Assembly (NCBI GenBank): GCA_041671325.1
Contig: JBAZBR010000002.1
Location: 137,978-201,977 of the forward strand
Length of the DNA: 64,000 bases
Direction of reading: 5' to 3'
Origin: Patescibacteria group bacterium
GTDB taxonomy: Bacteria > Patescibacteriota > Patescibacteriia > PEXW01
Each line of letters starts with the position of its first letter. The first letter of the stretch is position 1. Positions 19,793 to 36,209 of this stretch are shown piece by piece. Position numbers and translations under genes: made by a program. The notes beneath the pieces were generated by a model that had not been told where the DNA came from, did not search any database, and saw nothing but the letters and a program-made list of their open reading frames with translations.

Positions 19793-19807
19793 ACAGTAAA
19801 ATACCCT

Positions 19808-21630: not shown

Positions 21631-21875
21631 ACCTCCTCTCCTATATAGGAGAGGATGCCCACAGGGCAGGTGAGGTGGGCGAATAAACTTATTCTTAATT
21701 TTCCAAGTAACCCTCACCCCCGCTTCGCGTACCCTCTCCCAGAGGGAGAGGGGGTAAAAATGCAAAGGATTACCACTTCTTTGCACTTCAGCCCACCCTC
21801 TGTCATTCCGACCGAAGCCCCGCTTGGCGGGGCGTAGTGGACCTGCCCGCCGAACTGGCAAGGCAGGTGGGGGAA
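21631..21875. repeat. GC-rich palindromic intergenic repeat cluster (class 2)
   Basis: CCTCTCCTATATAGGAGAGG, CCCTCTCCC-AGA-GGGAGAGGG and CCTGCCCGCC...GGCAGG. ORFs in this span are artefacts. Confidence 0.7.
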
Positions 21876-22374: not shown

Positions 22375-24291
22375 ATGCCAAAGATACTCGGAATCGATTT
22401 AGGGACAACCAACTCTTGCATGGCCGTCATTGAAGGCGGCGAACCCAAGGTGTTGGAAAATAAAGAAGGCAATCGTACTACGCCCTCTGTTGTTGCGGTT
22501 TCCAAAACCGGCGAAAGGTTAGTCGGCCAAGTGGCCAAGCGCCAAGCCGTGGTTAACCCGGAAAACACTTTGTATTCCATCAAACGCCTTATTGGCCGAA
22601 GATGGGATGATGAAGAAATCCAAAGGGATTTGAAAGTCCTACCCTTCAAAATGGTCCAAGCTGGCGTGGGCGTGAAAATCATCATGTCTGGCAAGGAATA
22701 TACCCCGCAAGAAGTTTCCGCCATGATTTTGCAGAAAATGAAAGAAGATGCGGAAACCAAATTGGGTGAAAAAATTGAAGAAGCCGTGATCACGGTCCCA
22801 GCATATTTTGACGATAGCCAAAGACAAGCCACCAAAGACGCGGGTGAAATCGCAGGGCTAAAAGTCCGCCGCATAATCAATGAACCCACAGCTGCGGCTT
22901 TAGCCTATGGTTTTAATAAGAAGAAGGATGAAAAAATCGCAGTCTATGATTTGGGCGGCGGCACTTTTGATATTTCCATCTTGGAAGTCAGCAATGACAC
23001 GGTGGAAGTGAAAGCCACTAATGGCGACACCCACTTAGGCGGTGATGATTTTGACCAAAGGATTATCCATTGGATAATTGATGAATTTAAAAAAGACCAA
23101 GGCATTGATCTTTCCAAAGACCAAATGGCTTTGCAGCGCCTGAAAGAATCCGCGGAAAAAGCCAAGCATGAACTTTCCACCACCACGGAAACGGAAATCA
23201 ACCAGCCTTTCATTACCACAGACGCTTCGGGTCCCAAACATTTGGTTTTGAAAATGTCCAGATCCAAATTGGAACAATTAGTCGGCGATTTAGTCGAGAA
23301 GACTTTAGAACCAACCAAAAAAGCTTTGGATGACGCGGGCTTGAAAACTTCAGACATCAACGAAGTGGTCATGGTTGGCGGTATGACCCGCATGCCTTTG
23401 GTCCAAGCCACAGTTGAAAAATTCTTTGGTAAAAAGCCTCACTTGGGTGTTAACCCGGATGAAGTGGTAGCCATTGGCGCGGCCGTCCAAGCCGGAGTTT
23501 TGCAAGGCGAAGTTAGGGATGTCTTATTGCTGGATGTCACGCCATTATCTTTGGGCTTGGAAACTTTAGGCAGTGTCATGACACCTTTGATCGAACGCAA
23601 CACCACTATTCCAACATCCAAATCCCAAGTCTTTTCCACGGCCGCTGATAACCAAACCAGCGTGGAAATCCACGTGCTCCAAGGCGAAAGGCCCATGGCC
23701 AATGACAACAAGTCTTTGGGCCGCTTTATCCTTTCTGGCATTCCGCCAGCGCCCCGCGGCGTGCCGCAAGTGGAAGTGACTTTTGACATTGATGCCAACG
23801 GCATTTTGAATGTCAAAGCCAAAGATAAAGCCACCAGCAAAGAGCAAAGCATTACCATTACCGCTTCCACGGGTCTTTCCAAAGACGAAGTGGAAAGGAT
23901 GAAGCAGGAAGCCCAGGCCAATGCCGAAGTGGACAAGAAGAAAAAGGAATTGATTGACACCCGCAACCTGGCCGAGAACTTGGTCTTTACCGCGGAAAAA
24001 TCCCTGAAAGACGCAGGCGACAAAGTCCCCAAGGACGTGAAAAAAGAAATTGAGGAAAAGATTGAAGCCGTGAAAAAGGTTAAGGACAGTGATGACAAAG
24101 ACGCCATTAAAAAAGCTTCTGATGACTTAGGTCAGACTATCCAGAAGATTGGGCAGGCGATGTATAAGGACCAACAACCACCTCAAGGAACCCCCTCGGC
24201 AAGCTCGGGGCCTGCGGCAGGAGCGAATGGCGAAGAGCCTAAAAATGATAAAGGTCCAGTGGATGCGGCTTATACTGAAGTTAAGAAGTAA
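22375..24291 (+). CDS. dnaK: molecular chaperone DnaK (Hsp70)
   Basis: Canonical Hsp70 motifs IDLGTTNS and DLGGGTFD; 638 aa. Confidence 0.97.
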
Positions 24292-24660: not shown

Positions 24661-25302
24661 ATGGAAGAATTACCAAAAGACCAACCAAATGTGTCAATAT
24701 CCCCAAACGTTACAAATGGTACTGCTTATCCGAAACCTGTTGATCTAATTTTTGAAGAATCCGAGAAGCAATTTCTTTCAAGATTACGAAATCTTGGTGT
24801 AATTCCAGATGACTTAGTTGCATTGCAAGAAGTCCGACCCGAAGCATTGGATATTCATGAACGTGAACTTTTAAGCCAGTTAACTGATGTTGAGCAAGAA
24901 ATTTTTAAGCAGTCTTTACTGGCTTATGGTTGGTTGTCTTACACTTTGGCAACCATGGGCTTGATGAGGGTGCTCGAGAGTTGTGTAGAGCTATTATTTA
25001 ACAAAGAACAAATTGAGAATCCGAAGCGACCTAACCCACCTAATCAGGCAGACCCTGAAATTTGCAAAAAATGCGAAATTTGCCAAACGTATTTTTCAGG
25101 ACTAAAGGCAAAGATTGAAAAATTATCAGAACAAACAAAAAATGAACAAGTAAAAAATTACCTATTACCAGTTATCGAGTTTTTAAAACGACTTGGGCAA
25201 TCTAAAAAACATATAAATTCTGAACTAGCTGATAAAACTGTGGCCCGTCAATTAATAGCTTCAATAATCTCATTATTAAAAAGTATAAAAAATGAAACCT
25301 GA
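24661..25302 (+). CDS. hypothetical protein, 213 aa, with a CxxCxxC cluster
   Basis: Coding-like ORF; no family recognised. Confidence 0.45.
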   Translation: MEELPKDQPNVSISPNVTNGTAYPKPVDLIFEESEKQFLSRLRNLGVIPDDLVALQEVRPEALDIHERELLSQLTDVEQEIFKQSLLAYGWLSYTLATMGLMRVLESCVELLFNKEQIENPKRPNPPNQADPEICKKCEICQTYFSGLKAKIEKLSEQTKNEQVKNYLLPVIEFLKRLGQSKKHINSELADKTVARQLIASIISLLKSIKNET

Positions 25303-25579
25303 TCAAATTTCAATTAAGATTGATGATGCAACCATGAAAGGCGTTTATGCCAATATGATGAGCGTTTCCCATTCCAAAGAGGAATTTCTCTTGGATTTTT
25401 TGAATATCTACCCCTTACAACAAGCGGGGATTGCCACCTCTCGGGTAATTGTCTCGCCTGGGCATATGAAAAGGATAGTGAATGCCCTGCAGGACAATTT
25501 GAAAAAATACGAAGGCAGTTTTGGTAAAATTCAAGAAGCTGATGCGCCCACCAGCGGGGAAGTTGGTTTCCAGGGTTAA
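25292..25579 (+). CDS. DUF3467-like small conserved protein, copy A
   Basis: KGVYANMMSVSHSKEEFLLDF pattern. It is 88% nt identical to 33511-33801. The DUF assignment is from memory. Confidence 0.6.
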   Translation: MKPDQISIKIDDATMKGVYANMMSVSHSKEEFLLDFLNIYPLQQAGIATSRVIVSPGHMKRIVNALQDNLKKYEGSFGKIQEADAPTSGEVGFQG

Positions 25580-25600
25580 TAATAATTTAAAACATTTTAT

Positions 25601-25837
25601 ATGAAGAACAAATTAAATTCTCAACTAAAGAAGAAAATGTTGAGGTATATAAGGTACGACAGATTTTTACGCGAGTATCGAAATCAATTCATTTCCAGTT
25701 TTAAGAACGGTATAAAAACTCAAACCGCAAAAAAATTATTAACTAGCGATGAATTAACTAGAATTTCAGTCATGAATAAGCATTTAAAGAAATTAGAGCA
25801 ACAGTATATAATTTCTGTTCGTAAATTTATATTTTAA
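25601..25837 (+). CDS. hypothetical basic protein, 78 aa
   Basis: Short Lys/Arg-rich ORF. Confidence 0.35.
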   Translation: MKNKLNSQLKKKMLRYIRYDRFLREYRNQFISSFKNGIKTQTAKKLLTSDELTRISVMNKHLKKLEQQYIISVRKFIF

Positions 25838-25849
25838 TTATCTAATTTT

Positions 25850-26188
25850 ATGACTTGCCAAAACTGCGGGCATTTAAATCAAGAAGATGCAAAATTTTGT
25901 ATAAATTGCGGAAAAGTATTAGTAAAATCTATCGAACAAAAAGTAAATGCACAAACAGTGGTAACAGTTAATGATAGTAAGAACAAAAAAGTAAAAAAGA
26001 AACATTATGGTCAACTGGCGTTTATTTTTATTGTTTTTGCAACATTAATGCAGAATTCAACACCGGAACCGGACACCACAGGAAGGATTACTTTTTTTGT
26101 AATCCAAATATTATTAGCATTTTTTGGTATGTATTTCTTGGTACGTTGGATAATGTATTTATTTAAGAAAAAAGATTCAAAGAAATAG
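25850..26188 (+). CDS. zinc-ribbon domain membrane protein
   Basis: N-terminal CQNCG...CINCG and two C-terminal TM helices. Confidence 0.5.
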   Translation: MTCQNCGHLNQEDAKFCINCGKVLVKSIEQKVNAQTVVTVNDSKNKKVKKKHYGQLAFIFIVFATLMQNSTPEPDTTGRITFFVIQILLAFFGMYFLVRWIMYLFKKKDSKK

Positions 26189-26200
26189 AAAAGTTTTATT

Positions 26201-26290
26201 TCCTCCGCTTCCACCTTTACCTGCCGATGAGGCAGGTCCCGCCCGCCTCGCTCCGTGAAACGGAGCAGGTCGCCCACGGGGTGGGGTTTT
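26201..26290. repeat. array-module GC-rich repeat (class 1), left-most copy
   Basis: TCCTCCGCTTCCACC...CGGGGTGGGGTTTTT; shares its core with the other copies. Confidence 0.7.
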
Positions 26291-26295
26291 TAGCA

Positions 26296-26330
26296 AAAAG
26301 ATAAACCAGCACCTTGTGCTGGTTTGTAGA
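26296..26330 (-). terminator. terminator of cassette gene 1
   Basis: ACCAGCAC-AAGG-TGCTGGT hairpin, with a T-run on the minus strand. Confidence 0.55.
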
Positions 26331-26345
26331 TTTTGATAAGTCGAC

Positions 26346-26570
26346 TTAATGTGCCTGGCAGAGCGAAAGGCTTTGTTTTAGTTTTGCAACATCACCCTCA
26401 GTACCCCCGACAATTTCATAAATTACAGTACTGGTTGCTTGTTCTGTTTGTACAAGCCGTACGGGTAAAGGGGTAAGAGCATTTAATGACCCAACTGTTA
26501 GTTTAACTAACTTGTCCCATTCTTCGGGGGTTTCGACGTCACTTGAGTTCAATTGAGCGATCATTTTCAT
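26346..26570 (-). CDS. cassette gene 1: hypothetical protein, 74 aa
   Basis: GGAG SD; own promoter and terminator. Confidence 0.5.
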   Translation of the reverse strand: MKMIAQLNSSDVETPEEWDKLVKLTVGSLNALTPLPVRLVQTEQATSTVIYEIVGGTEGDVAKLKQSLSLCQAH

Positions 26571-26596
26571 TATCTCTTCTCCTGTGTTTTCGTTTT

Positions 26597-26640
26597 ATTT
26601 GACTTGATGTTAATTCGAAGTCTTTACCCTGTCAATCCTC
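26597..26640 (-). promoter_or_regulatory. sigma70-type promoter of cassette gene 1, fused to a class-1 repeat
   Basis: Minus-strand TTGACA-17-TAACAT. The -35 is the reverse complement of the repeat-initial TGTCAA. Confidence 0.55.
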
Positions 26641-26675
26641 CTCCGCTTCCACCTTAGGTAGGCGAGGGGTTTTTA
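26631..26675. repeat. class-1 repeat, short copy
   Basis: TGTCAATCCTCCTCCGCTTCCACC...GGGGTTTTT. Confidence 0.65.
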
Positions 26676-26678
26676 GAT

Positions 26679-26707
26679 TTGACATTTATAACTACCGATT
26701 GTAAAGT
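26679..26707 (+). promoter_or_regulatory. sigma70-type promoter of the GNAT gene
   Basis: TTGACA-17-TAAAGT. Confidence 0.5.
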
Positions 26708-26748
26708 ATTCCATTAAACATAAAAATAATTAGCTGTGGAGGTTTACA

Positions 26749-27165
26749 ATGCAATTTAGGTTTTACACTGAACAAGACTACGAAACCGTAGCGGGATTCT
26801 TCAAACAATCTGGCCAGTATGATCCAACTTGGGATACGGCCGAGAACCTTAAGGAAAAGATTACCCGGTTTCCGACCTCAATCATTGTTTGCATAGAGGG
26901 CGGCGAGGTAGTGGCAAGCGTCTTTACCATGGAAGACGGCTGGGGGACTTTCATTTATCGACTAGTTGTTCGGCCAGACATGCAAAAACAGGGCATAGGC
27001 AGGGCGCTGATGGCATTCGCGGAAATGACCTTGAAGCAAAAAGGCAAGAAAGAAGTCGCGATATTTGTCCATGACACCCGCCAAGACCTGCTCGAGTGGT
27101 ATGCGGACCAGGGTTATCTTTTTGATGACCCCAAGAGCTACCGCTCATTGTTCAAAAAACTTTAA
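26749..27165 (+). CDS. GNAT family N-acetyltransferase
   Basis: Acetyl-CoA binding motif (Q/RxxGxG/A: QKQGIGRALM). Confidence 0.8.
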   Translation: MQFRFYTEQDYETVAGFFKQSGQYDPTWDTAENLKEKITRFPTSIIVCIEGGEVVASVFTMEDGWGTFIYRLVVRPDMQKQGIGRALMAFAEMTLKQKGKKEVAIFVHDTRQDLLEWYADQGYLFDDPKSYRSLFKKL

Positions 27166-27189
27166 ATTGATTTGGGCGACCCTTATCCG

Positions 27190-27262
27190 GCCGCCCTTTT
27201 TTGTATTTCTTTTCCACTTTCACCTTCTCCTTGCCTCGTCCGCGGGGTATGGTTTTGAGAAT
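27190..27262. repeat. class-1 repeat, degenerate copy (TTGTAT replaces TTGTCA)
   Basis: TTGTATTTCTTTTCCACTTTCACC...CCGCGGGGTATGGTTTTG. Confidence 0.55.
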
Positions 27263-27278
27263 ATGGTAAAATAAAAAT

Positions 27279-27794
27279 ATGAAAGTTATTCTTTACATGG
27301 CAATTACCGCGAATGGCATGATCGCGAAACGCAATAATGACACGAGTTGGGTTTCCAAGGAGGAATGGAAAAGTTACAACGCAACCGTACTTCACGCGGG
27401 CTGTTTGGTCGTAGGCCGAAAAACCTATGACATCATGGTAAAGGAAGGTGAGTTTGCGAAGTTGAAAGAGGTCTTTGTCGTGGTTGTTAGCCATCAGGAA
27501 GTTGAAATGGTGGACCCGCTGCATCAGGTGGCTCATACACCACAAGAGGCATTGCAATTGCTTAAAGATTATCCAGAGGTTATTATTGGCGGTGGCGGGA
27601 ACATAAATAGTGAGTTTTTGAAAGAGAAGCTCGTTGACGAAATGTATTTAGATATTGAACCGAAACTTATTGGCAAAGGTATTCGATTATTTGAAAATCT
27701 TGATTTGGATTTTAATTTGGTTCTTCTTGATACAAAAGCCATTTCACCAAATGTGGTTCAGTTGCATTATAAAGTGATTAAGTCGGTTTCGTAA
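27279..27794 (+). CDS. dihydrofolate reductase-like protein (RibD C-terminal domain family)
   Basis: MKVILYMAITANGMIA N-terminus and VIIGGG motif, typical of the bacterial YwjB/DHFR-like family. Confidence 0.7.
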   Translation: MKVILYMAITANGMIAKRNNDTSWVSKEEWKSYNATVLHAGCLVVGRKTYDIMVKEGEFAKLKEVFVVVVSHQEVEMVDPLHQVAHTPQEALQLLKDYPEVIIGGGGNINSEFLKEKLVDEMYLDIEPKLIGKGIRLFENLDLDFNLVLLDTKAISPNVVQLHYKVIKSVS

Positions 27795-27836
27795 TTCTTC
27801 GCTTCCCCCTTCCTACGCCCGCGGGGTGGGATTTTG
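27795..27836. repeat. class-1 repeat, truncated copy
   Basis: CGCTTCCCCCTTCC...CCCGCGGGGTGGGATTTTGG. Confidence 0.55.
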
Positions 27837-27837
27837 G

Positions 27838-27975
27838 ATAAATGAATACATCCTCTCCTATATAGGAGAGGATGGCCGAAGGCCAGGTGAGGTTCACAAA
27901 AAACTAATTTCAAACTTTCCGAGTTCCCTCACTCGCCTACGGCACCCTCTCCCAGAGGGAGAGGGGATTTTTGGT
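27838..27975. repeat. class-2 palindromic repeat, copy A of a near-identical ~180-bp direct repeat (with terminator)
   Basis: CCTCTCCTATATAGGAGAGG...CCCTCTCCC-AGA-GGGAGAGGG; near-identical to 28549-28690. Confidence 0.75.
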
Positions 27976-27980
27976 AAAGC

Positions 27981-28012
27981 AAAAACCCCGAGGAAAATCC
28001 ACGGGGTTTTGC
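27981..28012 (-). terminator. conserved hairpin terminator of cassette gene 2
   Basis: CCCCGAGGAAAATCCACGGGG with a T-run on the minus strand; about 4 near-identical copies in the array. Confidence 0.65.
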
Positions 28013-28031
28013 AAAGAGTGTGTTCGGATAT

Positions 28032-28397
28032 TTATTCCGGTTGGTTACGCTTTACCATTTCGACCGGAACCCATTTTCCGCTGGCGAGTACCGCCTCTTC
28101 CAAACGTGCCGCTTCAGCCAGGCATTCGTCAAGTTTGGTGTAGGGCTTGTCGAGAGGATTGACCCTACAGCCAGAATAGGCCGAATGGGCCGTGCTGGGG
28201 TCAAGGTAATTGTAAAGGTGGAATACGGGATAAAGCGTCCCGTCTCCCAGTCCATCGCCTTTCCCATTGATATTGAGCCAGATCTCTTTCCGTATGAAAA
28301 TCGATGAGGCTTGAGTACCATCGGGTTTCCACAAAAAGCAACAACAGTGCTGATCGGCTACGAGCTGAGATGCAAAGTTTTCAGGAGGTTGGTACAT
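28032..28397 (-). CDS. cassette gene 2: hypothetical protein, 121 aa
   Basis: Own promoter and terminator. Confidence 0.5.
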   Translation of the reverse strand: MYQPPENFASQLVADQHCCCFLWKPDGTQASSIFIRKEIWLNINGKGDGLGDGTLYPVFHLYNYLDPSTAHSAYSGCRVNPLDKPYTKLDECLAEAARLEEAVLASGKWVPVEMVKRNQPE

Positions 28398-28453
28398 CTG
28401 TATTCTCCTTTTCTCCTAAAAATGTTTTTACTATTTGTAATTTGACTAAACAG

Positions 28454-28480
28454 ATTATCACAAAATAGTTTTATTGTCAA
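28454..28480 (-). promoter_or_regulatory. sigma70 promoter of cassette gene 2
   Basis: TTGACA-16-ATAATC with a TGTG extended -10. Confidence 0.6.
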
Positions 28481-28545
28481 CCCTATCCGCTTCCACCTCC
28501 TCGCCAAAAAGGCGGGCAAGCCCTCCGCCCGCGGGGTTGGGTGTT
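28474..28545. repeat. class-1 repeat
   Basis: TTGTCAACCCTATCCGCTTCCACCTCC...AAAAAGGCGGGCAAGCCCTCCGCCCGCGGGG. Confidence 0.7.
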
Positions 28546-28548
28546 GGA

Positions 28549-28690
28549 TAAATGAATACATCCTCTCCTATATAGGAGAGGATGGCCGAAGGCCAGGTGA
28601 GGTTCACAAAAAACTAATTTCAAACTTTCCGAGTTCCCTCACTCGCCTACGGCACCCTCTCCCAGAGGGAGAGGGGATTTTTGGTAAAGC
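28549..28690. repeat. class-2 palindromic repeat, copy B
   Basis: Near-identical to 27838-27975. Confidence 0.75.
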
Positions 28691-28725
28691 AAAAACCCCG
28701 AGGAAAATCCACGGGGTTTTTACAA
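28691..28725 (-). terminator. conserved hairpin terminator of cassette gene 3
   Basis: CCCCGAGGAAAATCCACGGGG plus a T-run. Confidence 0.65.
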
Positions 28726-28748
28726 AGAGAGTAGCTTAGTCGGAACAA

Positions 28749-29288
28749 TTATTCCGACCAGTAACGAGCGAAGCAGTCGCGGAAGTATTGGTTGTTACTG
28801 ATTTTGGCGATCCGCGTCGCTGCTTCAGAAGTCATCCACTGCATACGAACGGCCAGGGCGAGCATAAGGGCTTCGTCGGCCAGTTCGGGTAAGCCCGAAA
28901 AGGAGATTGCGAAGGGACCGTAATGATCGCAGACGATCATATTGCACAGTATGGCACCGGCGTACTTCTCGTTTTCGACGCGGGTCTGCCAGCTGCTCAC
29001 GGCCTCTTTCCCTCGCTTAACGAAATCAGCGATTAAGCGATCGGCTTTTTCGGTCGCAATGTTTGCGTACTTTAGCGTACCAATTGGCAGTTCGCCGATC
29101 GGTACTGTCAGAAGAGCCGGATTGTTGCTTATGTATTGCGGGCGATTGCTTGGGGTGAGCTTCATTACGAAGAATCCACCTCGCCGGTCTTTACGGTCGT
29201 AGGCTGCCGAGTTGCACATTTCAAGCAAGAGCTCTTCAACTGCTTCAACTACATTGTTGCGAAAGTTCTTGTCAACGATCTCGTTCAT
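28749..29288 (-). CDS. cassette gene 3: hypothetical protein, 179 aa, possibly GlcG/HbpS (DUF336)-like
   Basis: C-terminal GPFAISFSGLPELADEALMLALA resembles the GxxGVSGGxxxQDxxxAxAA motif; weak. Confidence 0.5.
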   Translation of the reverse strand: MNEIVDKNFRNNVVEAVEELLLEMCNSAAYDRKDRRGGFFVMKLTPSNRPQYISNNPALLTVPIGELPIGTLKYANIATEKADRLIADFVKRGKEAVSSWQTRVENEKYAGAILCNMIVCDHYGPFAISFSGLPELADEALMLALAVRMQWMTSEAATRIAKISNNQYFRDCFARYWSE

Positions 29289-29338
29289 GAAAAACCTCCA
29301 GTTTATCTTTCGTTTCTTGGTTTCTTTCTAAGTCACTT

Positions 29339-29367
29339 AATCTAGCAAAAAAGTTTATTGCTGTCAA
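29339..29367 (-). promoter_or_regulatory. sigma70 promoter of cassette gene 3
   Basis: TTGACA-17-TAGATT. Confidence 0.6.
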
Positions 29368-29437
29368 TCCTCCTCCGCTCTCCCTCCCCGCCCAAAAGGC
29401 GGGCAAGCCTTCCGCCCCTGCCCGCGGGGTAGAGAGG
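29362..29437. repeat. class-1 repeat
   Basis: TGTCAATCCTCCTCCGCTC...CCCAAAAGGCGGGCAAGCC...CCCGCGGGG. Confidence 0.7.
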
Positions 29438-29531
29438 TTAGGGTAAGGAATAACGTGTTTGACAGATTAGTAGCGCCATATTAAAGTTGTTCAACAAAGA
29501 AATCATTTGATCTTTATATCTTGGAGGTAGT

Positions 29532-29768
29532 ATGAAAGTGATTGTCAGTGAAAGAGAAGTAACCGGAGATAGGGGTTGCTATGCTAACCCACCGGTTGGC
29601 GCTTCAGTAATCGAAGGTGAGGAAATCCATTTTGCAAATGTTGACTTAACCGCGGATGGGGATAGTCTAAAAATCCGCATTGACAATGACCGGATGTGCT
29701 ATCTTTTTATTCAACGGGATGGAGATACCTTACGTATCAGCAATATCGGTTACGATGTTAAATCGTAA
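29532..29768 (+). CDS. plus-strand gene inside the array: hypothetical protein, 78 aa
   Basis: SD GGAGGTAGT; followed by its own terminator. Confidence 0.5.
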   Translation: MKVIVSEREVTGDRGCYANPPVGASVIEGEEIHFANVDLTADGDSLKIRIDNDRMCYLFIQRDGDTLRISNIGYDVKS

Positions 29769-29774
29769 ATTCAA

Positions 29775-29806
29775 GCGGGATTTCTCCTCCCGCTTTTTAT
29801 TAACGG
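29775..29806 (+). terminator. intrinsic terminator
   Basis: AGCGGGA-TTTCTCC-TCCCGCT followed by TTTT. Confidence 0.6.
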
Positions 29807-29823
29807 TCGGTAAATAATTCTAT

Positions 29824-29898
29824 GCTTCCACTTCCACGGCTTACGCCGTTCCCGCCCAAAGGGCGGGCAAGCCCTCCGCTAGCGGGGTGGGGTTTTTG
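29824..29898. repeat. class-1 repeat without an attached minus-strand promoter
   Basis: GCTTCCACTTCCACGG...CCCGCCC-AAA-GGGCGGG...GGGGTGGGGTTTTTGG. Confidence 0.65.
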
Positions 29899-29908
29899 GA
29901 TAATACAA

Positions 29909-29935
29909 AAACCGCTGGGCGAACCATACGGTTTT
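29909..29935 (-). terminator. terminator of cassette gene 4
   Basis: AACCG...CGGTT hairpin plus a T-run. Confidence 0.5.
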
Positions 29936-29957
29936 TAAAGATGTTGGCGTTGAAGGT

Positions 29958-30233
29958 CTATCGCGTTTCCACGAAGGTAAGCGTTCCTTCAAACACCCCG
30001 AACGAGCTGCTTTCCTGGAATAAGTAATTTTCGGGTTTTTCGTCCGCACGCATGGTACGGGTGAGAACCCACAGGTCGTCTTCTTTCCAGGTGGCGTTTA
30101 CCAGCTTCGTTCCTGCCGGTAATGCAATGGTTTCTTCGCCACCAAAATTGCGGACTCGCTGTTGCTTGGTACAACCACTGAAGCAACCGAAGATCAGCAA
30201 TACGGCCAGGGAAAGAATCAATGTCTTTTTCAA
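29958..30233 (-). CDS. cassette gene 4: small lipoprotein, 91 aa
   Basis: Signal peptide with lipobox FSG-C. Confidence 0.55.
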   Translation of the reverse strand: MKKTLILSLAVLLIFGCFSGCTKQQRVRNFGGEETIALPAGTKLVNATWKEDDLWVLTRTMRADEKPENYLFQESSSFGVFEGTLTFVETR

Positions 30234-30259
30234 AATACCTCCCGACTTTCTCGATGGTT

Positions 30260-30302
30260 TAATTTAATTTCGTGTAACCATAGATGATAGCATAAATAGA
30301 TA
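30260..30302 (-). promoter_or_regulatory. sigma70 promoter of cassette gene 4
   Basis: TTGACA-16/17-TATCAT. The -35 sits in one arm of a 19-bp inverted duplication. Confidence 0.5.
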
Positions 30303-30384
30303 TTTTGTCAACCCCGTTAGAGTTTAGTTTTAATGACTCTAATATATGGGGTAATTAATCATAATAACTCTAACGGGGTCAACC
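30297..30384. repeat. 19-bp perfect inverted repeat duplicating the repeat/-35 junction
   Basis: GTCAACCCCGTTAGAGTT (30297-30315) and AACTCTAACGGGGTCAACC (30366-30384). Confidence 0.6.
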
Positions 30385-30440
30385 CTCCTCCGCTTCCATC
30401 TCCCGCCCAAAGGGCGGGCAAGCCTCGCCCGCGGGGTGAG
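30378..30440. repeat. class-1 repeat
   Basis: CCTCCTCCGCTTCCATCTCCCGCCCAAAGGGCGGGCAAGCCTCGCCCGCGGGG. Confidence 0.7.
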
Positions 30441-30532
30441 GGAAAGATTGCTTCGCAAAACCTCGCAATGACGTAGAAAAAGAAAACCGACCCGCTCTAA
30501 GTGAGGGATCGGTAGAAATTAAACGGCGTCAG

Positions 30533-30850
30533 TTAGAATCTGGGTGGAAGTTCACCTTTGCGTAATCGGGAATATATTGCCGGTATCTGGGATGGCTTCG
30601 CATAGAATTCGATGCCATATGTCCCGACGTAGTCGCCGTCGTACTTGATAACCCACACATCTTCCATGGTGAGTTTGGCTTTTGGAAAGTCCTTTTTCGC
30701 CTCTTTAAAGAGGCGAAAGATATAGTCTAGGTAGCCATGCTGGAGGGAGGTCCTGATTATGACTAGCAGAGTTCCCTTTGGCCGGCCATTATATGGATAG
30801 CACTCTTTGATGAGCTCTACATCCTTCTGTTTCAACAAATCAGTTGCCAT
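30533..30850 (-). CDS. cassette gene 5: hypothetical protein, 105 aa
   Basis: SD AAGGAG; own promoter. Confidence 0.5.
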   Translation of the reverse strand: MATDLLKQKDVELIKECYPYNGRPKGTLLVIIRTSLQHGYLDYIFRLFKEAKKDFPKAKLTMEDVWVIKYDGDYVGTYGIEFYAKPSQIPAIYSRLRKGELPPRF

Positions 30851-30894
30851 ATCTAATTACTCCTTTTTGTTTTTGACAGTTTTGTTATAGAAGA

Positions 30895-30922
30895 ATCTAA
30901 CAAACCATCTGAAATGTGTCAA
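30895..30922 (-). promoter_or_regulatory. sigma70 promoter of cassette gene 5
   Basis: TTGACA-16-TAGATT. Confidence 0.6.
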
Positions 30923-31050
30923 TCCTTTCCGCTTCCACCTCCCCTCCTTCGCCCTTCGGCTTCCGCCTACGCCAAATGCTTCGGCGGACAAGTCGGAGGG
31001 CGGGTCGCCCAAAAGGCGGGCAAGCCCTCCGCCCGCGGGGTGTATTTTTT
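30917..31050. repeat. class-1 repeat, long form (about 134 bp)
   Basis: Adds CTTCGCCCTTCGGCTTCCGCCTACGCCAAATGCTTCGGCGGACAAGTCGGAGGGCGGGTCG before the common 3' half. Plus-strand UUCG tetraloop hairpins. Almost identical to 32400-32510. Confidence 0.75.
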
Positions 31051-31055
31051 AGCAA

Positions 31056-31092
31056 AACAAAAACCCCGGGAAGAATCCACGGGGTTTTGCAA
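31056..31092 (-). terminator. conserved hairpin terminator of cassette gene 6
   Basis: CCCCGGGAAGAATCCACGGGG plus a T-run. Confidence 0.65.
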
Positions 31093-31107
31093 AGGTCATC
31101 TTTTGAT

Positions 31108-31398
31108 TTAAAACTTCATGTAGAAACCCTGGAGGAGCATATACTCTACGTCGACATGTTCTGTGCCGACAGTGATTTTTTGGAGTATATCCAGGATTTC
31201 AGCATTGTAGTCGTTCGGCGTAGACACGAGCCTGATGTACGGTTGGCGTGCACCCCTGACGTCAATCACGTAACTTCCAGGGAATACCGTGATAACGTAT
31301 TCGACTTCGTAATCCTTGCCCCTGAAGGCATTTTGAATCTGAGACGTTAACTCCTCGATCTCGTTTTGTTCAAACCCGATAATTTCAATATTCGGCAT
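31108..31398 (-). CDS. cassette gene 6: hypothetical protein, 96 aa, possible tautomerase-superfamily member
   Basis: Start at MPNIEII with SD AAGGAGG; the N-terminal Met-Pro-x-I-x-I resembles 4-OT/MIF tautomerases. The longer track ORF runs through the promoter. Confidence 0.5.
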   Translation of the reverse strand: MPNIEIIGFEQNEIEELTSQIQNAFRGKDYEVEYVITVFPGSYVIDVRGARQPYIRLVSTPNDYNAEILDILQKITVGTEHVDVEYMLLQGFYMKF

Positions 31399-31444
31399 TT
31401 GAACCTCCTTTTCAAGTAAAATGTTCATGTTTGAATAACGAAAA

Positions 31445-31473
31445 AGTATAGCGTAAATTTTTATTTTTGTCAA
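31445..31473 (-). promoter_or_regulatory. sigma70 promoter of cassette gene 6
   Basis: TTGACA-17-TATACT. Confidence 0.6.
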
Positions 31474-31509
31474 TCCTTTTCCGCTTTTACTATTGATTTT
31501 TGGAATAAG

Positions 31510-31540
31510 AAAAACCCATCCATAGAGGACGGGTTTTCCA
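31510..31540 (-). terminator. terminator of cassette gene 7
   Basis: AACCCGTCC...GGATGGGTT hairpin plus a T-run. Confidence 0.5.
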
Positions 31541-31556
31541 ATGAGATATTTTGGTG

Positions 31557-31898
31557 TTAGGCGGTCACCGGATGATTTTTGAAGTAATCCGGATCGACGA
31601 GCAGCAGAATTTGCTCGCACGCACCAGCGAAGCTCTGCTCATCCACGATGCAACCCCATTTCCTCACGTACAGCCGGGAGAAATCCCAGGTGTTTATTTT
31701 GTTTTTCTCCAGGAGTTCTTCCAGGAGAAGGATGATCGCGTTATGGGTCGTGAACATTTCAGGGGCAGAGTAAACGTGCTCGGCTTTTTTCTGCTCGAGG
31801 CTCTGCTTTGTTCTTTCGAGCAGTTCCTGCAGGGCTCTGCGTAGCTCGTCGTTTTCAGGCAGAATAATATCAATTCCGCCCTTTGCCAGCTCTGTCAT
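31557..31898 (-). CDS. cassette gene 7: hypothetical protein, 113 aa
   Basis: Start at MTELAKGG with SD GAGGAGG, downstream of the promoter. Confidence 0.5.
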   Translation of the reverse strand: MTELAKGGIDIILPENDELRRALQELLERTKQSLEQKKAEHVYSAPEMFTTHNAIILLLEELLEKNKINTWDFSRLYVRKWGCIVDEQSFAGACEQILLLVDPDYFKNHPVTA

Positions 31899-31934
31899 GT
31901 GTACCTCCTCGTTTTTGTTTTCGTAATTTATAAC

Positions 31935-31968
31935 AGCAAAGTATTGCATAGTAAATAAATTTTGTCAA
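31935..31968 (-). promoter_or_regulatory. sigma70 promoter of cassette gene 7
   Basis: TTGACA-17-AATACT. Confidence 0.5.
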
Positions 31969-32027
31969 TCCTTTCCGCTTCCTCCTTTTGCCCTCTACGC
32001 TAGCGTGGTGTATTTTTTATCAAAGCA
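31963..32027. repeat. class-1 repeat, short variant
   Basis: TGTCAATCCTTTCCGCTTCCTCC...GCTAGCGTGGTGTATTTTTT. Confidence 0.65.
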
Positions 32028-32028
32028 A

Positions 32029-32058
32029 AAACCCCGGGAAGAATCCACGTGGTTTTTA
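32029..32058 (-). terminator. conserved hairpin terminator of cassette gene 8
   Basis: CCCCGGGAAGAATCCACGTGG plus a T-run. Confidence 0.6.
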
Positions 32059-32069
32059 GTAAAGAGGGT

Positions 32070-32330
32070 TTAGACAACATTGAGTGCTCGCTTGATGATG
32101 TCAACGGTAATTTCCAAGCTCATTATATTAATCCGAAGCAACAATTCAGTTTTCGGTAAGGCGTCTATGGCCGCGCACCATTCCGGATGCGTGTTCATTA
32201 GCGTTGCCCGCCCACCCTTATCCTTGTCAGCGGTTTTCCAAAAGAGATCTTTAATGTCTTGGATTTCTGCTGGCGTGCGTGCTTGTAAAAGTTTTGTTAT
32301 TTCATCAAGAGCTTTTTCAAAATCTGTCAT
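32070..32330 (-). CDS. cassette gene 8: hypothetical protein, 86 aa
   Basis: SD AAGGAAGG; own promoter. Confidence 0.5.
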   Translation of the reverse strand: MTDFEKALDEITKLLQARTPAEIQDIKDLFWKTADKDKGGRATLMNTHPEWCAAIDALPKTELLLRINIMSLEITVDIIKRALNVV

Positions 32331-32376
32331 TTATTGCCTTCCTTTGTTTTTGTAAATTTCACTTATTTAATAAGGG

Positions 32377-32405
32377 AACTTAACAAATAATAAAATTCTT
32401 GTCAA
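32377..32405 (-). promoter_or_regulatory. sigma70 promoter of cassette gene 8
   Basis: TTGACA-17-TAAGTT. Confidence 0.6.
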
Positions 32406-32510
32406 TCCTTTCCGCTTCCACCTCCCCTCCTTCGCCCTTCGGCTTCCGCCTACGCCAAATGCTTCGGCGGACAAGTCGGAGGGCGGGTCGTCCGCCCGCG
32501 GGATCCCGTG
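32400..32510. repeat. class-1 repeat, long form, second copy
   Basis: About 95% identical to 30917-31050 over the shared part. Confidence 0.75.
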
Positions 32511-32522
32511 GAATATTAAATC

Positions 32523-32553
32523 AGACCTCACAATTGTGAAGTCTGATCGAAAC
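32523..32553 (-). terminator. long perfect hairpin 3' of cassette gene 9
   Basis: ATCAGAC-CTCACAATTGTGAAG-GTCTGAT. The loop is itself palindromic; the T-tract is weak. Confidence 0.35.
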
Positions 32554-32574
32554 AGCAGTTTGTTTTGTTGATCC

Positions 32575-33072
32575 TCAGAATGAAACATGCTCCCGAATTA
32601 CCCGTACAATCTGTTTGGTCATCTCATCGAACCCAAACACGGGCGACCAACATGCCCAGATTTCATAGGGTTCAAGGTGAACACTCTTTATGCCTTGGAT
32701 TCCAAAGAGTGCTTTCACCAAACTGGTTTGCTTGTCCGGTTGGGCACCAGGATAGTGGAAAGAAAGGCGCTGTGCTTCAGTAATTGGCTCAGAAACATCG
32801 AAGTAGCAGTCGCTACGCCCTCCGTTCTTGCTCGTCAGAGCGATACGTAGATTTGGGTCCCAGTTCGTCCGTCGATTCATCGGAACCTCGCCGAGTTTAA
32901 GCATCCAGGTACCGGCCCTGACGAAAAATTTTCGTCCTGGGCAGCAAAGAAGCAGGTGCTTCAATAGGTTTGAAACGTACAACATAGTTACCCCATGCCT
33001 TGCGCTGTTGTTTGTTGGCTGTCTTTTGACGCAAGGCTGCGTATTGGGCAAGACAGATAATCCCAAACGCAT
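32575..33072 (-). CDS. cassette gene 9: hypothetical protein, 165 aa
   Basis: Start ambiguous: MRLGL at 33072 has a short leader and no SD; MLYVSN at 32985 has a weak SD. The track ORF runs upstream through the promoter. Confidence 0.4.
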   Translation of the reverse strand: MRLGLSVLPNTQPCVKRQPTNNSARHGVTMLYVSNLLKHLLLCCPGRKFFVRAGTWMLKLGEVPMNRRTNWDPNLRIALTSKNGGRSDCYFDVSEPITEAQRLSFHYPGAQPDKQTSLVKALFGIQGIKSVHLEPYEIWACWSPVFGFDEMTKQIVRVIREHVSF

Positions 33073-33088
33073 ATTTTTGTAACTGAGT

Positions 33089-33117
33089 ATAGTACCGTAC
33101 TTTTTGTTTTTTGTCAA
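33089..33117 (-). promoter_or_regulatory. sigma70 promoter of cassette gene 9
   Basis: TTGACA-17-TACTAT. Confidence 0.55.
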
Positions 33118-33150
33118 CCCTTTTCCACTTGAGCCCTTTACCCTAAAAAC
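33112..33150. repeat. class-1 repeat, degenerate right-most copy
   Basis: TGTCAACCCTTTTCCACTTGAGCCC. Confidence 0.5.
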
Positions 33151-33156
33151 AACGGG

Positions 33157-33190
33157 AAAAAATAGCCCCGAACCGGTGTTCGGGGCTTTC
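33157..33190 (-). terminator. intrinsic terminator on the minus strand
   Basis: GCCCCGAAC-ACCG-GTTCGGGGC plus a T-run. Confidence 0.6.
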
Positions 33191-33251
33191 AAGGAGGGAT
33201 ATAACTCACCAAGTGGTTATCCTTGGCGAAATCATTATAAGAAAAACGAAA

Positions 33252-33288
33252 TATTTGTCAAAAAAAAGGAGCCCCAAGGATGTCTTGG
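33252..33288 (-). terminator. intrinsic terminator on the minus strand
   Basis: GAGCCCCAAG-ACATCC-TTGGGGCTC followed by an 8-T run. Confidence 0.6.
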
Positions 33289-33510
33289 GGCTCACAAGGA
33301 AAGGAGGTCAGAATGAAAACACTGAAGTAGTACCGGAACTGCTAAGAAAGGAACCCGAGATCCGCGAACGAGAGAAGGAAGTATTTGTTTTAGCTATATA
33401 AAATATAATATAATCCTTTAAAGCCGTCAAATCACTTATAAAATCGTTAAGATTGTTAATAAGGCCCAATTAAACTAAAATGTATTTATCTCTTAATTAT
33501 TAAAAAACAT

Positions 33511-33801
33511 ATGAACCAACAACAGCAAATTCAAATTAAAATTGACGACACCATCATGAAAGGCGTTTATGCCAATATGATGAGCGTATCCCATTCCAAG
33601 GAGGAATTCCTTTTGGATTTTTTGAATATTTACCCGCTCCAGCAGGCTGGGATTGCCACCGCCAGGGTGATTGTCTCCCCAGGCCATATGAAAAGGATTG
33701 TGAATGCCCTGCAGGATAATCTGAAAAAATACGAGAGCAGTTTTGGCGCGATTAAGGAAGCTGATGCGCCCACCAGCGGGGAAGTGGGATTTAAGGGGTA
33801 A
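33511..33801 (+). CDS. DUF3467-like small conserved protein, copy B
   Basis: Paralog of 25292-25579. Differences are mostly synonymous. Confidence 0.6.
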   Translation: MNQQQQIQIKIDDTIMKGVYANMMSVSHSKEEFLLDFLNIYPLQQAGIATARVIVSPGHMKRIVNALQDNLKKYESSFGAIKEADAPTSGEVGFKG

Positions 33802-33915
33802 GTCTTATATCATCCTGAACCTGAGCTTGTCGAAGGTGAAGGATCTTCATAAAGTATGATATTTATTGAGATTCTTCACCCCGCGGTTGCGGGGTTCAGA
33901 ATGACAGAATAAAAC

Positions 33916-35097
33916 ATGCCAGAACCAAAACCTAATATTCCAAATTCAAAATTTACGCCAAAACACCATATCAAATGGAAGGTGATTTTTATTGCTTTGG
34001 TGACTTTTATTTTCGCCGGAGTTTTTTGGTGGACTTTGGATATGGCCTTAAGGGTTAAATTAGTGGGCTTGCCAGCCATAACCCAGCTTTGGCAATTATT
34101 GATTGCCATTGCTTTCTTTTGCCTATTCCTGGCTTTGTTCGGGGTATTTGCCATGACCCGTGGCCGGAAAAGTTTTTGGCAAACCGCTTTGGTGGCTTTA
34201 ACATCTGCAGCTGTCCTAATTCCTTTTTTCCCAACCCGTTATGCCACCCTTGGCGCAGCCGGGATTTTTTTAATCGGCCTGGTCTTGTGGGCTTATAACG
34301 TGGCAGGGGATGTGAATTCCAGGAAAAAATTCCAGCCGCATTACACCATTCATGCGGGCTTTGGCACGGGCTTGGTTTTACTTTTGATTGGCATATCTTT
34401 GTGTTATTACACTTCTTTAGGCGATTCCAAAAAAACCACGGAAGAAGTCAGGCAAAATATTGTGGTGGCTGCCAGGAACAGTATGAATTTAATTCTTAGC
34501 GCCCAAGTCAAGGATTATCGGGGCACCATGACTCTGGATGAATTCTTAAGTTTGATTGCAACTGATAAATTCGGGGAAATTGTGGTGCCGGAATTGACTA
34601 AGACTTTGGGTTCAGATGCGCAAAAAGAATCGGCTTACAAGGAAATCATCAGCCAGCTAAGGAAAGTCAACCCGGTTTTTGAAAATCAGAAAACCACCGA
34701 TGAAATCGAGCAAAAACTTGATGCCCAAATCCAGGCCGAGCAGGAAATTTTGCAAAAAGCGGCCTTAGCCCAGTTGTCAGCGGTCCAAAAGCAGCTTTTG
34801 GAAGAAGCCCGGCGGGAATTTTTGCTAACTTTCAAGATTGAAGCCACCGGTGCCGAACCCATGAATGAAATAATTGATAAAATCATCAATCGCCGCGTTA
34901 TCCAGTATGTGGATCCTTATGAAAAGACCATCCCGCCCATTTTGGCATTATCTTTCTTCTTTATCATTGAATTGATAAGTTTTGTCTACCGTTATGTGAT
35001 TTTTGCTTTGGCGCCGATCATTGCCTGGGTTTACAAAAAACTAGGATTGATTAAGATAAGCAAAGCCCAAGAAGAAGTTGAAAGGGTGGAATTATAA
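33916..35097 (+). CDS. hypothetical membrane protein with a C-terminal coiled-coil region, 393 aa
   Basis: Four or more N-terminal TM helices, then a charged helical region. Confidence 0.5.
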
Positions 35098-35102: not shown

Positions 35103-36209
35103 ATGGCCAAAGATTATTATGATATTTTAGGCGTTAGCAAAAGCGCCAGCGAGGATGAAATCAAGAAAGCTTTCCGCAAAAAAGCCCATGAGCTGCATCC
35201 TGATAAAGCGCATGGTGACGAGGCAAAATTTAAGGAAGCTAATGAGGCTTACCAAGTTTTATCAAATAAAGAAAAACGCAACCAGTATGACCAATACGGC
35301 CAGACTTTTGACCAAGCCAGCAGGCAAGGCGGGGCGCCTGCTGGCGGCTTTGGCGGTTTCGATCCCAGCGGTTTTCAGCAAGGCAATGTGGATTTTGGCG
35401 ACCTAGGCGATATCTTTGGCGACATTTTTGGTTTTGGCGGCGGCCGTTCAAAAAGAAGCCGGGCAAAAGGTGGCAGAGATATTCAGGCAGATTTGAATTT
35501 AAGTTTTCGCGAAGCGGTTTTTGGCGCGGAAAAATCTTTTGAAATGTATAAAAGCGTAATTTGCGGCCATTGCAGTGGTACAGGCGCAGAACCAGGCTCG
35601 AAAATGCACACCTGCCAGACTTGTAAAGGCCAAGGTCAAGTCCAAAGAATAGTCAATTCTTTTTTTGGCCAGATTGCGCAAAATTCCATTTGCCCGACTT
35701 GCGAAGGCGCTGGCCAGATACCCAGCCAAAAATGCCGGCAATGCAATGGTAATGGCAGGATAAAAAAGAACCAGGTCATAAAAGTCTCAGTACCGGCTGG
35801 CATTGACGATGGTGAAACCTTGCGTTTGTCTAATCAGGGTGAAGCTGGCGAGAAAGGCGGCAGTGCTGGAGATTTGTATTTGCGCATCAGGGTCCAACCA
35901 GATTCTAGGTTTGTCCGTAAAAATGCGGATATCTTAAGCCAAGTGGATATTAATTTTCCTGCTGCAGCTTTGGGTACAAAATTAGAAATTGAAACAATAG
36001 ACGGAGCAATCTCAATGAAAATTCCTGCGGGCACCCAGTCGGGCAAAGTGTTCAGGTTGAAAGACAAAGGTATTCCTTATTTGCGCAAGCGCGGCCGGGG
36101 CGACCATTTAATTACTGTGAATGTGGTCACGCCCACCAGGCTGCATGGCAAAAAGAAAAAACTTTTGGAAGAATTGGCGGAAATGGAAGGGGATGAAATC
36201 TCAGAATAA
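35103..36209 (+). CDS. dnaJ: molecular chaperone DnaJ
   Basis: J-domain HPD motif, Gly-rich linker, and four CxxCxGxG zinc-finger repeats. Confidence 0.95.

Follow-up and report, generated by a model that had tools for sequence, protein, structure and literature searches.

Between dnaK and dnaJ in the metagenome-assembled genome of a Kerfeldbacteria-like member of the Patescibacteria (Candidate Phyla Radiation), the stretch of DNA analysed here (64,000 nucleotides, nt; hereafter the window) carries an array of 12 single-gene units, at whose 13 junctions copies of one spacer repeat, the class-1 repeat, all point the same way. We tentatively interpret this region, with a confidence that falls somewhat short of even, as a lineage-specific flexible island of moron-like transcription units that has been reshuffled by recombination between its spacer repeats. 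The island lies in a hotspot that is ancestral to this lineage, between dnaK and a block made up of a DUF3467 gene, a membrane gene and dnaJ. Its units place one small open reading frame (ORF) between a housekeeping-type promoter with its leader and an intrinsic terminator; these ORFs have mixed origins, and the cargo includes a GNAT gene, a DHFR-like reductase, a protein with a predicted DUF336 fold, a phage-type lipoprotein and several ORFans. Any explanation has to account jointly for the autonomy and unrelatedness of the units, for a single sharp-ended repeat of constant orientation at each junction, and for mosaic spacers together with a duplication around one unit (c9). All coordinates below are those of the whole window on its forward strand, the minus-strand array being read in reverse.

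Units, promoters and the class-1 repeat

The array occupies positions 26190-33300, and exactly nine of its units are encoded on the minus strand (c1-c6 and c8-c10; 74-179 amino acids, aa), in agreement with the original prediction, which had described about nine small, unrelated minus-strand ORFs in a modular cassette array splitting the dnaK-dnaJ operon. The other three lie on the plus strand. Pfam bears out the GNAT gene (PF00583, 2e-12) and the RibD_C/DHFR-like gene (PF01872, 6e-16, together with PF00186) that had been recognised there, and the third plus-strand ORF, at 29532-29768, was likewise recovered (78 aa, with its own promoter and terminator). The array and its units are as follows.

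26199-33130, minus: complete array, comprising 12 single-gene units and 13 copies of the class-1 repeat, every copy in minus orientation
32575-33072, minus: c1 ORF, 165 aa in the gene call of the European Nucleotide Archive (ENA) assembly; 136 aa if translation starts at ATG 32985
32070-32330, minus: c2 ORF, 86 aa, no family match
31557-31898, minus: c3 ORF, 113 aa, no family match
31108-31398, minus: c4 ORF, 96 aa, no family match
30533-30850, minus: c5 ORF, 105 aa, no family match
29958-30233, minus: c6 ORF, 91-aa lipoprotein
29459-29795, plus: c7 unit, with TTGACA-17-TAAAGT promoter, 78-aa ORF (29532-29768) and terminator (29773-29795)
28749-29288, minus: c8 ORF, 179 aa
28032-28397, minus: c9 ORF, 121 aa
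27279-27794, plus: RibD_C/DHFR-like gene, 171 aa
26679-27195, plus: GNAT unit, with TTGACA-17-TAAAGT promoter, ORF (26749-27165) and terminator
26346-26570, minus: c10 ORF, 74 aa

The composition of the array ORFs is heterogeneous (GC content at third codon positions 33-63%), which fits mixed foreign origins, and their mean GC content exceeds that of the neighbouring genes (46.5% vs 41.3%, p=0.008). The c6 lipoprotein falls into phrog_12728 (1.8e-26) and shares 40-51% identity with lipoproteins encoded by large Bacillus phages; one of its homologues lies in a phage-like contig together with DnaB and HNH genes. It alone matched when the concatenated array proteins (1079 aa) were compared with phages and plasmids by tblastn, there were no convincing PHROG matches among the array proteins beyond it, and the window annotation holds no phage structural or replication genes. 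The c8 protein has no Pfam match and a confident predicted fold of the DUF336/GlcG/EfgA-like type; its family, with more than 400 representative sequences, may on the strength of that model be an unannotated branch of this superfamily. A weak similarity of c1 to Nfu_N (E 0.004) lies below the Pfam cut-off, PADLOC found no match to a defence system in the array, and the remaining array ORFs had no notable Pfam, PHROG, PADLOC, phage or plasmid match.

As predicted from the sequence, 11 of the 12 units possess an exact TTGACA hexamer, a spacer of 16-17 nt, a TAnnnT -10 element and a hairpin terminator, and five of the predicted unit promoters additionally carry TG upstream of the -10. The claim that every unit has its own promoter and terminator thus holds for these 11 and fails for the RibD_C/DHFR-like gene, which lacks both a TTGACA promoter and its own terminator. 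The distance from the -10 to the start codon is 36-54 nt (103 nt for c1, if it started at 32985), and the unit leaders contain a Shine-Dalgarno sequence, of the GGAGG type in most. A motif search yielded the conserved hairpin terminator, which had been expected in four or more copies, four times, at 27982, 28692, 31060 and 32028; the remaining units carry other hairpin terminators. The first two copies form part of a duplicated junction module described below, and the other two are:

31060-31088, minus: conserved terminator hairpin, copy 3
32028-32056, minus: conserved terminator hairpin, copy 4 (AAAACCACGTGGATTCTTCCCGGGGTTTT)

All 13 junctions carry the class-1 repeat or its right end, always in minus orientation, and the framing of the units by one and the same repeat module is therefore sustained at 13 of 13 junctions. 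In the alignment the left end reads (C)ACCCCGCGGGCG and the purine-rich right end GGTGGAAGCGGA(R)(R)AGGA, which can also be written AGGTGGAAGCGGA(R)(R)AGGA, while the centre varies from nothing to ~90 nt and contains differing small GC hairpins, such that the whole repeat measures ~35-125 nt. The 13 copies are spaced ~440-1150 nt apart on one strand, the left boundary is sharp in ten of them, and at three junctions (R0, R3 and R11) the repeat consists of just its right end or of a minimal version. Motifs of 20, 26 and 29 nt were counted four, three and four times, respectively, as against 0.04, 0 and 0 in dinucleotide shuffles, and every match fell inside the array. The individual copies are:

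33112-33130, minus: R0, right end only (AAGTGGAAAAGGG) with the TTGACA -35 of c1
32400-32503, minus: R1, long repeat with the -35 of c2 at its end; 84% identity to R4 across 147 nt
31963-32011, minus: R2, short repeat with the -35 of c3
31468-31490, minus: R3, right end only (AAAAGCGGAAAAGGA) with the -35 of c4
30917-31041, minus: R4, long mosaic, an R8-type segment then an R1-type segment, with the -35 of c5
30378-30437, minus: R5, repeat ending in GGGTTGAC
29818-29888, minus: R6, repeat without a -35, next gene inverted
29362-29430, minus: R7, repeat with the -35 of c8
28475-28537, minus: R8, repeat with the -35 of c9
27795-27827, minus: R9, truncated repeat abutting the stop codon of the DHFR-like gene
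27206-27248, minus: R10, repeat without a -35 between two plus-strand genes, minus orientation kept
26630-26670, minus: R11, minimal repeat (35 nt) with the -35 of c10
26199-26282, minus: R12, terminal repeat without a -35

The repeat runs directly into TTGACA only if the next gene is on the minus strand, which is the case at nine junctions (at c6 a 65-nt insertion intervenes). At four others, where a plus-strand gene comes next or the array closes (R6, R9, R10 and R12), the repeat is present and TTGACA is not, and the idea that the -35 is tied to the repeat can accordingly be kept for the former junctions and not for the latter. At its right end the repeat has the sequence GGATTGACA or GGGTTGACA; where no -35 is present, it has GAATTA or GAAATA. 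Beyond the hexamer the units show no homology: the segments between promoter and ATG reach a maximal identity of 0.69 between units, compared with 0.55 +/- 0.07 for shuffles, and since homology of these promoter and 5' untranslated segments was rejected as not exceeding that of shuffled sequence, the part shared by the units ends at the -35.

The repeat had also been described as structured, and this we could not substantiate. When the 13 sequences were folded as single-stranded DNA on both strands, z-scores relative to shuffled sequence ranged from +0.6 to -2.7, with one at -4.5, and most copies folded no better than their shuffles; R12 was the only one to fold clearly better (z -2.7 and -4.5). 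The folded repeats form local hairpins only, leaving the conserved right end unpaired throughout, and the consensus fold of the class-1 alignment has four invariant pairs and no covariation.

The position of the right end directly upstream of the -35 raises another reading, namely that this sequence (GGTGGAAGCGGARRAGGA) is mainly a common regulatory site, for an activator or repressor or of the UP-like kind, which would place the units in one regulon. Its location at -36 to -55 is typical of class I activator sites; G-rich tracts before TTGACA also occur at promoters outside the array, at 9400, 19734 (hrcA) and 45088, those at 9400 and 45088 being of the similar form AAG(C/T)GG...GG-TTGACA; and a solitary copy at 7826 stands upstream of a small-ORF promoter. 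However, the motif is retained at the four junctions that no promoter follows, the island contains no regulator gene, and neither the conserved left end nor the variable centre nor the invariant orientation between plus-strand genes would be explained. We regard a primarily regulatory role as very improbable.

Mosaic spacers and possible routes of assembly

The spacers are mosaics of several small repeat families, some of which are dispersed: R4 is composite, junctions J8 and J9 carry a second element (element E), R5 has received an insertion, and small palindromes and the G-rich tract recur elsewhere. The features concerned are these.

27812-28010, minus: 199-nt junction module, copy 1
28522-28720, minus: 199-nt junction module, copy 2, consisting of the conserved terminator, element E and the class-1 left end
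27849-27965 and 28559-28675: element E copies in two array junctions
21004-21160: element E copy in the grpE-hsp20 spacer
21634-21753: element E copy in the hsp20-dnaK spacer
10649-10689: element E copy, partial
30313-30377, no strand assigned: 65-nt insertion with palindromic 11-nt inverted ends (CCCGTTAGAGT...ACTCTAACGGG)
7826-7851, plus: solitary class-1 right half, matching R5 at 24 of 26 nt

The two copies of the 199-nt module are 98% identical, with 177 nt identical, and bracket the c9 unit as a direct repeat, which is the footprint expected from recombination within a spacer. Element E, ~130 nt long, consists of two similar hairpins, CCTCTCCTATATAGGAGAGG and CCCTCTCCCAGAGGGAGAGGG, with a variable internal slot, and looks REPIN- or PATE-like. 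Perfect 16-nt palindromes (CCCCGCGGCCGCGGGG), which are related to the class-1 left end, lie in intergenic spacers at 10649-10664, 21028-21043 and 40963-40978, and a variant (CCCCGCGGTTGCGGGG) follows the dnaJ-proximal DUF3467 gene at 33879-33894. The 65-nt insertion splits the -35 of R5 and is flanked by a GTCAAC target duplication; because the insertion duplicated the -35 hexamer, the promoter of c6 was restored, its working TTGACA being at 30311-30306.

The solitary half-repeat is followed (7826-8400) by a TTGACA promoter, an ORF for an 87-aa membrane protein (7993-8256), a terminator and a GC-rich tract; this segment looks like an orphan unit and adjoins an IS1595 transposase gene (8526-9323). 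It is the one half copy present outside the array in ~67 kb (57 kb of the window and 10 kb before its start), and the class-1 repeat is ~100-fold enriched in the array. Occurrence of the repeats throughout the genome without cassettes had been named beforehand as a finding that would speak against a cassette system, and this applies in part: components of the junction modules are indeed dispersed outside the array with no cassettes beside them, and one class-1 half stands by itself, but the class-1 repeat as such is concentrated in the array.

From the hotspot, the anatomy of the units, the mosaicism of the spacers and the duplication around c9 we infer a mechanism in which the repeats would act as insulating expression spacers. 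The left part of each would provide a terminator for either direction, including antisense termination at the ACCCCGCGGG end, and the right part the purine-rich tract and the -35. Since the spacers are direct repeats of 35-200 nt, they could supply portable homology, by which units would be gained, duplicated, lost and exchanged through general (RecA-type) or illegitimate recombination and with no dedicated integrase, for instance by Campbell-type insertion of a circle bearing one spacer copy. This is consistent with the lack of a recombinase near the array, with repeats that are not attC-like, with the mosaic build of the spacers and with the bracketing of c9.

Dedicated machinery was sought by Pfam annotation of the called genes in positions 1-56 kb of the window and in the 10 kb beyond its start, in which no tyrosine (PF00589) or serine recombinase was found within ~25 kb upstream or 30 kb downstream of the array; the only transposase-type genes in the surveyed region are the IS1595 DDE gene (8526-9323) and an rve-family integrase-core gene (18779-19660). 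With neither an integrase nor a serine recombinase in the window, the next 10 kb or the annotated flanks, there is no evidence for the cassette-mobility system that had been envisaged. Nor did motif scans reveal a spread of the class-1 repeat in metagenomes, a 21-nt right-end motif giving zero matches in the Joint Genome Institute (JGI) metagenomes and the class-1 repeat zero matches in IMG/VR. A 17-nt motif, a pattern that is too short, produced single chance matches in unrelated phyla when genome contigs were scanned, and Rfam, at gathering and E-value thresholds, returned only terminator-like noise and placed neither a group II intron nor any other family at the repeats.

Several observations weigh against assembly by such recombination. 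The regularity of the array exceeds what would be expected from random recombination or from selfish repeats. No junction has more or fewer than one repeat, and the 13 copies point the same way (chance probability 2^-12), even where both neighbouring genes lie on the plus strand. At R6, R9, R10 and R12 the right boundary is defined to within 2-3 nt, at the TTGACA junctions the common sequence ends at the -35, and in ten copies the left boundary is sharp. Moreover, direct repeats of 35-200 nt should be prone to deletion, yet 12 units persist. The ~74 kb inspected belong to a genome of at least 760 kb, which leaves room for a recombinase that acts in trans.

The one-per-junction, one-orientation pattern is in fact explained best by an integron-like site-specific platform, in which the class-1 repeat or its palindromic ACCCCGCGGGCG end would be a novel recombination site and a recombinase acting in trans would insert, directionally, circular single-gene cassettes that each bear one site and their own promoter and terminator. 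Such a platform would account for one repeat per unit in the same orientation (13/13) whatever the orientation of the gene, for conserved ends around a centre of variable length, as in attC families, and for a J8/J9 identity that stops exactly after CCCCGCGGGCG. It would also accommodate the four junctions without a -35, which break within 2-3 nt of one another, the heterogeneous, partly phage-related and integron-like cargo (GNAT, DHFR-like gene) and the solitary half-site at 7826-7851. In contrast, the ~74 kb examined contain no recombinase; the repeats have no R/L boxes, their ends do not pair and folding yields z-scores close to zero; their right end grades into the ordinary promoter signature of the organism; the repeat stands at zero not only in the JGI metagenomes and IMG/VR but also in eight related loci; and no alternative cassette order was seen. 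We consider this explanation, which would amount to a cassette-capture system with self-expressing cassettes and without attC or IntI, unlikely.

It is also conceivable, though decidedly improbable, that selfish non-autonomous intergenic elements, comparable to BOX, to bacterial interspersed mosaic elements (BIMEs) and repetitive extragenic palindromes (REP), or to miniature inverted-repeat transposable elements (MITEs), colonised the spacers of the island and played no part in its assembly. This would agree with the modular build of the repeats (the ends are conserved, and internal hairpin modules vary in number), with the dispersal of element E and the CCCCGCGGCCGCGGGG palindromes in other spacers, with the 65-nt insertion, whose palindromic ends and target duplication lie inside one repeat, with the IS1595 and rve genes of the window, and with a Y1 (IS200/RAYT-type) transposase gene at the locus in the closest relative. 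It is difficult to reconcile, however, with 13 class-1 copies in 7 kb as against one half-copy in ~67 kb, with repeats that never occur in opposite orientation or twice in one spacer, and with the absence of the class-1 repeat from both a low-GC block next to the array (24661-26188) and a small-gene cluster at 3000-6100.

An ancestral hotspot downstream of dnaK

The island does not split an otherwise contiguous pair of genes, as the original prediction had held, because comparison of orthologous loci shows that dnaK and dnaJ are separated at this point in relatives as well. The nearest DnaJ to that of the window belongs to Candidatus Kerfeldbacteria (79% identity). Of the related loci compared, L126-L129 run in full from dnaK to dnaJ, L123-L125 and L136 end near the hotspot upstream of DUF3467, and L138 is a short contig with 4.4 kb upstream; five of the loci, L136 and L138 among them, were retrieved with the membrane protein as query. 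In L126/L127 and L128/L129 the order is hrcA, grpE, (hsp20), dnaK, small genes, DUF3467, membrane gene and dnaJ. Their hotspot contains 3.5-7 kb of unrelated small genes on both strands (DnaJ 68-79% identical), among them genes for GIY-YIG, Trypco2, Fic and HD_4 proteins, and the flanking genes compared are 55-79% identical. Because eight related loci carry unrelated small genes at this point, the site after dnaK is an ancestral hotspot of variable content and the array of the window is one lineage-specific filling of it. In the window the interval comprises, in order, the low-GC block, the array, DUF3467 paralogue B and the 393-aa membrane gene:

22375-24291: dnaK
25292-25579, plus: DUF3467 paralogue A, within the low-GC block
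33511-33801, plus: DUF3467 paralogue B, at the ancestral site, upstream of the 393-aa membrane gene and dnaJ
33916-35097: 393-aa membrane gene
35103-36209: dnaJ

Six genes besides those of the array thus stand between dnaK and dnaJ, two of them the DUF3467 paralogues that flank the island. The DUF3467 copies form direct repeats of 276 nt (25304-25579 and 33526-33801; 85% nt identity) that bracket the whole 8-kb island, and relatives have one copy, the dnaJ-proximal one. The block at 24661-26188 has a GC content of 27-35% except in DUF3467, and a zinc-ribbon membrane protein is encoded by one of its four plus-strand genes. It seems to represent another insert into this hotspot, one of different composition.

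None of eight related loci contains the class-1 repeat, and L136 and L138 have 3-4 kb upstream of the membrane gene without comparable repeats. In L128 (DnaJ 68% identical), three GC-rich repeats (CCCTTCTGCGGCAGGCGGGGGGG) lie between variable genes, at 4020-4048, 4975-5045 and 6015-6105; after one of them an extended -10 stands just 7 nt from a start codon, which suggests a leaderless transcript, and a 14-nt piece of the motif also occurs in the window at ~8335-8352. Homology to the class-1 repeat was rejected, as BLAST found nothing at the L128 repeats and its best match (E 0.006) was in unrelated sequence, and we treat the two families as analogous only. In the closest relative (L123-L125), a Y1_Tnp gene (PF01797; IS200/RAYT-type; L123 879-1433, also in L124 and L125) is situated between DUF3467 and the membrane gene and is flanked by GC palindromes (GGCGAGCAAGCTCGCC); the window has no Y1 gene.

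The three independent assemblies of this relative end at an insertion sequence just upstream of DUF3467. The ENA assembly, in turn, is interrupted at both 199-nt repeat copies within the array, which leaves one unit (c9) on an 815-nt contig. Since this contig is identical to positions 27870-28684 of the window, the arrangement described here is consistent with an independent assembly. When strain variants of the array were sought through c9, this contig alone came up. Three independent assemblies break in or beside the island, which assemblers may take as a practical caution.

At the head of the array and divergent from DUF3467, two minus-strand promoter-terminator pairs enclose no convincing ORF: one at 33155-33293 (TTGACA-16-TATAAT at 33261, terminator 33187-33164) and one at 33262-33430 (TTGACG-17-TATATT at 33430, terminator 33293-33269). 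Both may encode small RNAs. L123 has a comparably placed promoter-terminator unit (~240-450), whose sequence does not align with those of the window, and a small RNA conserved upstream of DUF3467 in relatives was rejected on account of the unconvincing alignment. Farther away, the rve-family gene (18779-19660), which is IS3/IS481-like, lies directly upstream of hrcA, whose promoter (19734-19810) contains a canonical CIRCE inverted repeat, TTAGCACTC-N9-GAGTGCTAA. The minus-strand cluster at 3000-6100 is made up of very small genes (63-91 aa), several of them for hydrophobic, seemingly membrane-spanning products, and has its own ~60-nt spacer repeat (~4940-5000 and ~4530-4595) and stem-loops, unrelated to the class-1 repeat.

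Relation to known systems

That the layout is not a described system, as had been suspected, agrees with the literature searched, in which we found no match. One close parallel is with the cassette arrays of chromosomal integrons and with CALINs, attC clusters that have no integrase (Cury et al. 2016, PMC4889954). Like these, the array is a row of mostly single-gene, unrelated units of largely unknown function, each followed by a repeat on the same strand, with a few inverted genes that have promoters of their own, and GNAT and DHFR-type genes are typical integron cassette cargo. It differs in several respects. An attC site is an imperfect palindrome whose R''/R' and L''/L' boxes pair its ends, whereas the ends of the array repeats do not pair, and attC-type folding was rejected by single-stranded folding of both strands and by the consensus alignment. 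The integron cores RYYYAAC (R'') and GTTRRRY (R') are absent, the left ends of the array (ACCCCGCGGGCG) being without AAC; the junction listing and the alignment thus uphold the assertion that the repeats lack attC cores. Integron cassettes are generally promoterless and read from Pc, in contrast to the 11 of 12 units with a predicted promoter and terminator of their own. A complete integron has its integrase beside the array (a CALIN does not require one), and here the surveyed region contains no PF00589 gene. In genomes below 1 Mb, the size class into which the host of the array falls, complete integrons were not found (Cury et al. 2016, PMC4889954).

If the spacers were indeed recombination sites, the problem answered by integrons would have been solved a second time, independently, and the array would be relevant to the origin of gene cassettes, which is still unsolved. 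Should they provide only portable homology, or be selfish repeats, the array would still be a clean natural example of insulated modular expression. Patescibacteria have minimal genomes with few regulators, and how they gain and express new genes is little understood; the array offers a concrete layout, in which small foreign genes, each with a consensus promoter and a terminator, are kept apart by a reusable spacer at a hotspot in the neighbourhood of heat-shock genes.

Site-specific modules of another kind are bounded by pdif sites, 28-bp XerC/XerD sites of alternating orientation that are served by a host recombinase encoded elsewhere. The small, often single-gene modules with their own promoters and short bounding repeats are reminiscent of the array, whose repeats are, however, direct, longer and unlike dif; the array locus shows no GC-skew turn that would mark a terminus, and dif/Xer modules were rejected on the grounds of the direct repeat orientation and the absent inflection.

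BOX elements of Streptococcus pneumoniae and BIMEs of enterobacteria are intergenic repeats of modular or mosaic build that are dispersed over the whole genome in either orientation, and some copies influence the transcription of neighbouring genes. The array repeats resemble them in being intergenic, in having conserved ends and variable internal modules and in being combined with small palindromic units, and differ in their confinement to one 7-kb stretch and one orientation (in the ~10% of the genome seen) and in a fold that is not notably stable; element E, unlike the class-1 repeat, shares their dispersal.

In Neisseria and marine bacteria, for example, minimal mobile elements and the hotspots of flexible islands rely on homology of the flanking genes. 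The present locus fits this description in its conserved flanks, formed by dnaK and by the block of DUF3467, membrane gene and dnaJ, and in the unrelated content of each relative; the array adds an internal repeat scaffolding between every gene. Finally, phage morons are autonomous promoter-gene-terminator units inserted between phage genes. Each array unit is similarly self-contained with one small accessory gene, and c6 belongs to a phage protein family; the array differs in lying outside any phage or prophage, in having 12 units in tandem and in the common repeat between them.

Taken together, as its mobility is putative and it is known from one species only, we do not regard the array as a categorically new system. 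We rather see in it a flexible-island hotspot that has been combined with modular intergenic repeats and moron-like units.

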